A stretch of 34,666 bases of DNA, from the IMG/VR virus record IMGVR_UViG_3300026187_000004, positions 1 through 34,666 of that record. One strand, given 5' to 3'. The translations under genes and the position numbers were made by a program. Shown one piece after another: positions 9,345 to 9,376 of the stretch; position 1 is the first letter of the stretch, and each line of letters starts with the position of its first letter. The stretch is from a virus (lineage: Duplodnaviria; Caudoviricetes). The notes under the pieces are model-generated. The model was given only the letters and a program-made list of their open reading frames with translations, searched no databases and was not told the origin of the DNA.

Positions 9345-9376
9345 AGGGGGGACTAAATACTACGAAAATCCCCCCT
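9345..9376 (-). other. GC-clamped hairpin with a 16-nt loop (candidate antisense element)
   Basis: AGGGGGGA-N16-TCCCCCCT; on the minus strand the loop reads UUUUCGUAGUAUUUAG. Confidence 0.7.

Follow-up and report, generated by a model that had tools for sequence, protein, structure and literature searches.

The hairpin locus

The 34,666 bases analysed here (the window) make up the entire virus record IMGVR_UViG_3300026187_000004, an uncultured aquatic phage with about 30% GC. Its minus strand carries the early genes, running from about 19.0 to 7.9 kb, and among these, between a gene for a ribbon-helix-helix (RHH) protein and a gene for a single-stranded DNA-binding protein (SSB), lies a G-C-clamped RNA hairpin (Table 1). 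The hairpin lies apart from its presumed targets, and its loop exposes a seed complementary to several translation starts. On the sequence evidence presented below, it is probably a phage-encoded antisense RNA, the loop of which would pair in trans with the AUG regions of early genes that carry a common leader tag, blocking initiation.

An earlier, sequence-only reading of this DNA had described an 8-bp clamp with a 16-nt loop on the minus strand. Both are present: an A-G6-A / U-C6-U clamp (9376-9369 / 9352-9345, minus strand) closes the loop UUUUCGUAGUAUUUAG 5 nt past the RHH stop codon. However, the clamp belongs to a longer stem of 9+11 = 20 bp (9387-9334; -25.7 kcal/mol, z -4.2, with none of 200 shuffles as stable), and the open part of the loop is predicted to be 12 nt, UUCGUAGUAUUU, with an unpaired probability of 0.95-1.0 in a fold of the likely transcript, 9592-9251. 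The stem shares bases with the RHH stop codon, and 9 nt separate its far end from the SSB start. No loop variants are seen in contigs of four DNA runs, among 40 of 232 variant rows. None of 20 runs listed for this sequence is an RNA run, which says nothing about expression. Two near-identical viral contigs, L001 and L002, both break at the hairpin (window 9384 and 9389), and assemblies may often lose this element.

Complementarity of the loop to early-gene starts

The pairings given in the sequence-only reading are all found in the DNA. All 16 loop bases can pair with 12930-12915 (13 Watson-Crick and 3 G-U pairs), 12 bp form at each of the starts 17921 and 18982, and TAAATACTA occurs just upstream of ATG 18559. 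When the whole genome is searched on both strands, with the loop's own complement excluded, the three best sites are the starts 12921, 18982 and 17921; start regions make up 3% of the genome, and none of 150 shuffled loops placed all three top sites there. Against the 55 start regions of the window (start sites called by a simple first-ATG rule, with some genes missed), the mean of the three best helices has a z of -3.9, matched by 1 of 500 dinucleotide shuffles. These and the following z scores against starts come from an ungapped stacking score, by which bulged duplexes, such as those of the type C relatives described below, are underrated.

The match is specific to this loop, strand and genome. 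The window loop scores z -0.8 to +1.8 against 13 related records, fitting none of them, and the opposite-strand loop scores z +1.5 against the window starts. When 52 window hairpins are ranked by start matching, this hairpin comes first (z -3.1, 40 shuffles). As an outside control, z <= -3 is reached by 1 of 86 loops from G6/C6 hairpins of 52 other viral loci, these being the loci with at least 8 kb and 12 starts among 120 returned by a clamp scan of 11 of 64 collection parts. The sequence AAATACTATG occurs three times in the window and in none of 14 related records. The antisense, multi-target interpretation has passed every sequence test in the window (top sites, z, hairpin rank and outside control), and the sequence-only reading as a whole is partly supported.

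Table 1. Features of the hairpin, its candidate targets and the associated genes and promoters (window coordinates).
Feature	Position	Strand	Detail or basis
RNA hairpin	9334..9387	-	lower stem, A/U, 9 bp; C-A mismatch (one); upper stem, 11 bp, of which six G-C
Putative antisense loop UUUUCGUAGUAUUUAG, 16 nt	9353..9368	-	open 12 nt = 9366-9355
Best candidate target: start of 59-aa gene, first of RecT/NinB operon	12915..12930	-	16 possible pairs over AUG
Candidate target: start of 120-aa gene	17918..17929	-	12 bp over AUG
Candidate target: start of ArdC-N-like gene, first behind 19.0 kb promoter	18979..18990	-	12 bp over AUG
Weaker site, just upstream of ATG 18559 (48-aa gene)	18564..18573	-	sequence match
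Two 19-nt direct repeats giving four TAAATACT copies, leader of 12921	12922..12959	-	sequence repeat
RHH protein, 62 aa, CopG / DUF6290 type	9382..9570	-	Pfam profiles
SSB, 135 aa, directly downstream of hairpin	8917..9324	-	structure model
Candidate promoter of RHH-hairpin-SSB unit	9589..9625	-	TTGACT at 9625-9620, poor -10; read from sequence
Palindromic candidate operator	9605-9589	-	over -10 region of RHH promoter
13.0 kb sigma70-type promoter, TTGACT-17-TAATAT	12978..13013	-	palindrome TTGTTAA-N3-TTAACAA over -10 box, 12994-12978
19.0 kb sigma70-type promoter, TTGACA-17-AATACT	19030..19058	-	without palindrome copy

The leader tag

The candidate targets lie 3.5 to 9.6 kb from the hairpin, in other operons, and two of the four tagged genes lack a consensus promoter directly ahead. 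The tag is recognizable as TAAATACTA, whose frequency the sequence-only reading had proposed to compare with a null expectation. The exact motif is in excess, with 7 copies in the window against 1.28 expected and none of 100 shuffles reaching that number, but with one mismatch allowed the excess disappears (35 vs 31.8). One copy is the loop itself, and five coincide with early-gene ATGs or lie immediately ahead of them (two at 12921, one each at 17921, 18559 and 18982), so that early-gene starts account for 5 of the six minus-strand copies. The seventh TAAATACTA, at 7248-7256 (minus strand), lies antisense within an SNase-type nuclease gene, away from any start. Copy number in the repeated leader of 12921 varies, since a contig of run X9 lacks about 20 nt, roughly one repeat unit, at 12929. 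A homologue of the 48-aa gene at ATG 18559, with 42% identity, is present in relative G002. Only weak folding is predicted for the target leaders, at -3.8 to -5.1 kcal/mol per 120 nt.

The sequence-only reading had also offered a decoy site for a protein that binds the motif. Spelled out, a protein would bind TAAATACT as a DNA operator or mRNA site, and the loop would present the same site on the plus strand. Four tandem copies in one leader would suit a multimeric binder, the RHH gene adjoins, and the plus strand of 9387-9335 folds too (-20.7, vs -23.7 for the minus strand). Such a decoy, however, needs plus-strand RNA, opposite to the local gene direction; the loop departs from the tag just at a position open to G-U pairing, with C in place of the T of ATG; and RHH has a better candidate site in a palindrome found at two promoters. 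The decoy is accordingly disfavoured, as the least probable of the explanations considered here.

The RHH and SSB genes and their promoters

The RHH protein matches the Pfam families RHH_1 (25.5 bits, cut-off 20.5) and DUF6290 (29.7 bits, cut-off 27), and its Atlas neighbours are RHH proteins. Assignment as the RelB antitoxin of a type II toxin-antitoxin pair was rejected, with 34.6 and 31.4 bits against a cut-off of 50 and with SSB as the downstream gene. The SSB model has a pLDDT of 82; searched against the PDB with Foldseek, it has SSB proteins as its top matches (best E 1.6e-4).

The window promoters found by promoter scan are sigma70-like. The palindrome TTGTTAA-N3-TTAAC(A/T)A lies over the -10 regions of two promoters, that of RHH (9605-9589) and the 13.0 kb one (12994-12978), and an exact TGTTAA-N3-TTAAC, a pattern picked after both sites had been seen, occurs nowhere else in the window. 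The palindrome is a fair candidate for the RHH operator, and the RHH protein likely represses both its own promoter and the 13.0 kb promoter through it. The sequence-only reading had envisaged a dual transcriptional and translational shut-off of the early genes; the DNA half of this is supported for the 13.0 kb promoter, but not for the 19.0 kb promoter, which lacks the palindrome. Double control would therefore be confined to the RecT/NinB operon, with RNA control alone for the other targets. Near-identical strain L002 carries a 401-aa IS605 TnpB-type gene (8591-9796) directly before the RHH promoter, which is unchanged, and a further 107-aa gene inserted behind recT (6524-6847).

Genome setting

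The gene content of the window includes a podovirus-type head module, RecT, NinB, DnaB and an ArdC-N-like gene. No integrase was found among the 53 window proteins, nor among the 41 of 61 G002 proteins scanned. Shine-Dalgarno (SD)-like 4-mers precede 5 of 50 genes in the window and 0-3 of about 50 in each of the relatives G001-G003, while SD sites are in use in G007 (25 of 77 genes). Scans of prokaryote genomes for a host gave no match, and the nearest named phages by capsid are 56-58% identical, which says little on the host. A small ankyrin-repeat gene between the portal and scaffold genes (26222-26476) may hint at a eukaryote-associated host.

Other genes of the window include tandem paralogues at 9815-10273 and 10254-10682 (DNA identity 69-77% over 141-161 nt stretches), a 243-aa orphan at 16471-17202 with only two homologues, both without name, and a 99-aa protein (17927-18226) with a five-residue repeat of W-K-D-G-I type.

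Clamp hairpins in related phages

Alignment of 34 SSB homologues led to 98 fetched loci, one of them identical to the window; the 40 records of at least 7 kb were reduced to 28 by near-duplicate removal. An intergenic clamp hairpin with z <= -3 against the record's own starts is present in 15 of the 28, which are one lineage with three loop types (A, B and C), so that the counts are not independent. Two further records reach 2 and 4 of 100 shuffles. All 17 records with a signal belong to one class, in which the hairpin lies just behind a sigma70-type promoter heading the replication operon, and the loops mirror a GTAATTAAC-type tag that several genes, on both strands, carry 21-28 nt ahead of their AUG. 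Phages of the GTAATTAAC class share small early genes with the window.

Loops and leaders vary together in this class. At position 6 the leader has C in 7 of 13 distinct sites facing a loop G, compared with 3 of 27 facing a loop A (Fisher P 0.006), and at positions 10-11 it has C in 6 of 17 sites facing a loop GG, compared with 1 of 21 otherwise (P 0.03). Both P values treat the records as more independent than they are. Loop G stands opposite a majority leader U within the helix at the window AUG, at position 11 of type B, and at position 10 and the last Y of type C, the latter being U in 17 of 19 sites. Such G-U combinations are allowed by RNA pairing but would be unexpected for a DNA copy. 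In type A, 6 of 12 sites show a C-A mismatch at the helix end. The stems of this class stay paired in 56 of 56 cells over 7 variants, with two double changes and one G-U.

Types A and B have two or three clamp hairpins in tandem, and in type A the tandem loops mirror the AUG context, the tag and a AAAACTAAAA-like tract. Examples behind the replication-operon promoter lie at L005:6260-6385 and L050:4660-4815, with loops that mirror the AUG context, the GTAATTAAC tag and the A-tract. Type C relatives have these loops fused into one loop of 36-38 nt. The short loops UUUUAGUUUU and UUUUCAUUU are without demonstrated significance, UUUUAGUUUU being the one scored. The ends of G002:C1 (51-95 and 34111-34156) hold two slightly different copies of the hairpin cassette, by terminal repeat or mixed assembly. 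Rfam gave no matches in five relative loci, and a G007 hairpin with a loop antisense-like to AUG found no support in start, rank or genome-wide tests.

Repeated leader tags could also be DNA exchange points for gene cassettes, with the hairpin as an inverted by-product. The tagged genes are small and variable between relatives, the copy number of the 12921 repeat varies, and in T4-like phages such shuffling is described as mediated by PeSL repeats (PMC4122927). The tags, however, are 9-16 nt long and lack a promoter-terminator composite, loop G opposite leader U runs counter to the A+T bias of a 30% GC genome, and the stems stay paired through double changes, all of which makes exchange very unlikely as the explanation.

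The unit before the replication initiator

A second unit of the same build precedes the replication initiator in the relatives. It consists, in order, of a promoter, a small hairpin showing the site, a clamp hairpin with a complementary loop, and the site again at the AUG. It is known in ten sequence variants, the rows also including two unrelated matches to the anchor pattern. Three variants have GGACTGAT twice with loop AAATCAGTCC, five have AGGTTCAA twice with loop TTTTGAACCT, and one has the upstream site only. Loop, upstream site and downstream site thus switch jointly (TTGAACCT with AGGTTCAA twice; ATCAGTCC with GGACTGAT twice). Judged from sequence, this joint switching demonstrates that selection for pairing acts on the clamp-and-loop units of this phage group. 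The unit lies at L005:7100-7190 (plus strand), and also in L008, L024, L050, L051, L066 and L068, and offers the cleanest testable case. ACCA or GCCA follows several of its stems.

Hairpins at the position of the window hairpin

A clamp hairpin with an AUG-mirroring loop directly before SSB is also present in two other lineages, L028/L083 and L030, in records that are 44-49% complete fragments; a stem scan with L083 returned 8 stretches, one of them L028's own record. Starts matching these loops would be AAACTACAATGAATAAAA-like and AAAGGTAAAAATATGAAC-like, respectively. The loops themselves have no significant targets (z -0.2 and -0.1, with one and none of the three top sites falling in starts).

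These hairpins bear on a further explanation, that of a cis element of the RHH-SSB transcript (a processing site, stabiliser, pause or SSB translational operator). In that case the loop would be an inverted leader copy with no remaining action on other genes. It would account for the presence of a clamp hairpin just before SSB in three lineages, for the restriction of significant targets to the window hairpin among these, and for the short distance between stem end and SSB start. It leaves unexplained why the three best genome-wide partners of the loop are starts, why the tag occurs four times in one leader, and why loops and leaders covary in relatives. A purely cis role is quite unlikely.

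The window loop itself appears to be private to this phage. Its exact pattern was found in 0 viral contigs, none of the 86 loops of the G6/C6 clamp scan is window-like, and locus searches with single proteins (SSB, RecT and DnaB) returned nothing, or only near-identical records.

Proposed mechanism

The antisense reading can be outlined as follows. Minus-strand transcription from the TTGACT promoter at 9625 would run through RHH, the hairpin and SSB. The G-C clamp would keep the U-rich loop open, exposing a stretch complementary to three early-gene start codons, and pairing at these AUGs would likely block ribosome loading. As two of the targets are operon heads, blocking them could have polar effects on the RecT/NinB and ArdC-N operons. 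The 13.0 kb promoter and the RHH promoter itself would be repressed by the RHH protein, acting through the palindrome. The arrangement probably serves to lower early-gene activity after the RHH-SSB unit has come on. A private leader tag would take the place of the anti-SD seed of many small RNAs (sRNAs), in a host in which phage genes are mostly without SD sites. The sequence-only reading had assumed one small transcript. No intrinsic terminator was found in a scan behind the hairpin, so a discrete RNA with its own terminator is not borne out, and the hairpin would act inside the RHH-hairpin-SSB mRNA or as a processed fragment.

Besides this missing terminator, several results weigh against the antisense reading. 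At the locus, the three best duplexes are modest (-15.1, -12.8 and -12.7 kcal/mol) and their targets A/U-rich, the RHH promoter is unlisted in the promoter scan and lacks a consensus -10, and a palindrome search with one mismatch is at chance level (5 vs 3.3). Among the relatives, 11 of the 28 records are without signal, among them those with the two other SSB-adjacent hairpins, whose loops lack significant targets, and the positive records are not independent. The genome-wide top-site test is weak for the relatives' loops (1 of 3 for G001 and L070, 0 of 3 for G003), the L070 loop cross-matches the window starts at z -2.7, and the strand with the U-rich loop is the more stable one in just 20 of 27 stems, 2 of the 29 rows being omitted as opposite-strand. 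No variant of the window loop turned up in a close relative by loop-pattern, locus or clamp scans; covariation between loop and leaders, which the sequence-only reading had proposed as a check, is therefore seen only in other hairpins of the same build, and not in a direct orthologue.

The same pairing might have another outcome, activating or stabilising the tagged mRNAs, or directing cleavage or termination. In the GTAATTAAC class, pairing falls mainly about 25 to 10 nt ahead of the AUG and the targets include genes of both divergent operons, and the RNA of phage P4, CI, is described as working through termination (PMC4825925). The window helix, by contrast, spans the AUG itself at all three best sites, and its weakly folded leaders offer little structure to relieve. 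An outcome other than blocked initiation is therefore considered unlikely.

A more tentative extension of the antisense reading, doubtful but possible, is that of a modular RNA barcode. Private tags on the SD-less leaders of chosen early genes would be combined with clamped-loop cassettes, up to three in tandem (anti-AUG, anti-A-tract and anti-tag), which jointly cover the start region. Loop and tag would be exchanged as a pair from lineage to lineage. The result would be a translational regulon that can be retargeted, possibly needs no chaperone and could also define superinfection immunity groups.

Relation to known RNAs

RNase P processing of CI-type RNAs involves a stem with a 3' RCCA. No RCCA end lies behind the window stem, which, unlike P4 CI, also lacks strong flanking sites (only one-mismatch 9-mers, neither among the 15 best sites). 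The C4 antisense RNA of phages P1 and P7 has a cloverleaf and a/b loop architecture, whereas the window element is one simple hairpin, without an Rfam match, and has several candidate targets in separate operons. An Rfam search of window 7000-20000 at E <= 1 gave only NsiR1 and mir-5736, far below cut-off and neither at the hairpin. The icd and ant/antirepressor families, expected for a c4-icd-ant operon, were not detected among the 53 window proteins, and the hairpin's neighbours are RHH and SSB. Staphylococcus aureus RNAIII is a loop-displaying multi-target sRNA encoded by the host. Unlike RNAIII and the mycobacterial 6C RNA, which are host RNAs with C-rich loops, the window hairpin has a U/G-rich loop that would read an A-rich, phage-specific tag in leaders poor in SD sites, with both tag and loop varying from one phage lineage to another.

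As described in PMC4825925, P4 CI RNA is made from a leader transcript, pairs with seqA/seqC sites and causes termination; it is reported as an RNase P substrate (PMC5499578). The window hairpin resembles it as a phage RNA that would pair with complementary sites of early transcripts, and the initiator unit of the relatives has the seqA-CI-seqC order, often with ACCA/GCCA after it. As described in PMC4825925, however, CI acts within its own operon, and the targets of the window hairpin lie in other operons. In the accounts of PMC8198154 and PMC2864571, C4 RNA (Rfam RF01695) represses an early phage operon alongside a protein that represses the promoter; the combination proposed here is similar.

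P22 sar, lambda OOP and aQ are phage antisense RNAs that lower a phage gene, sar by blocking translation initiation; each has one phage target in the account of PMC12197685, unlike the single trans-encoded loop and common tag of the window. The loops of 6C serve as chaperone-free seeds for many mRNAs, C-rich loops reading G-rich sites (PMC6486639), and the use of a hairpin loop as a multi-mRNA seed would be common to both elements. PeSL cassettes of T4-like phages, promoter-terminator composites that serve as DNA exchange points, likewise place a repeated regulatory sequence before small variable early genes; the window repeat, by contrast, is a 9-16 nt leader tag, and the abstract of PMC4122927 names no antisense partner for PeSL. 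No description of the window element was found in the literature searched, and the supplements of PMC10690425, with over ten thousand viral candidate RNAs, may list these hairpins. By analogy, the hairpin would work like P4 CI, P1 C4 and loop-seeded multi-target sRNAs, yet it has no Rfam match and does not share the gene context of these RNAs.

Implications

As far as the cited accounts describe them, sar, OOP and aQ (PMC12197685), P4 CI and P1 C4 have a single phage gene or operon each as their target. If the antisense reading is true, one 12-nt loop addressing several early genes through a phage-specific tag would constitute an RNA-level regulon within a phage genome, and a route of translation control where SD sites are rare. 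Loop-and-site swaps that occur naturally are ready-made compensatory pairs, leaving the model open to simple reporter fusions, and the clamp-plus-loop scaffold would, if true, provide a minimal silencer for SD-poor bacteria.
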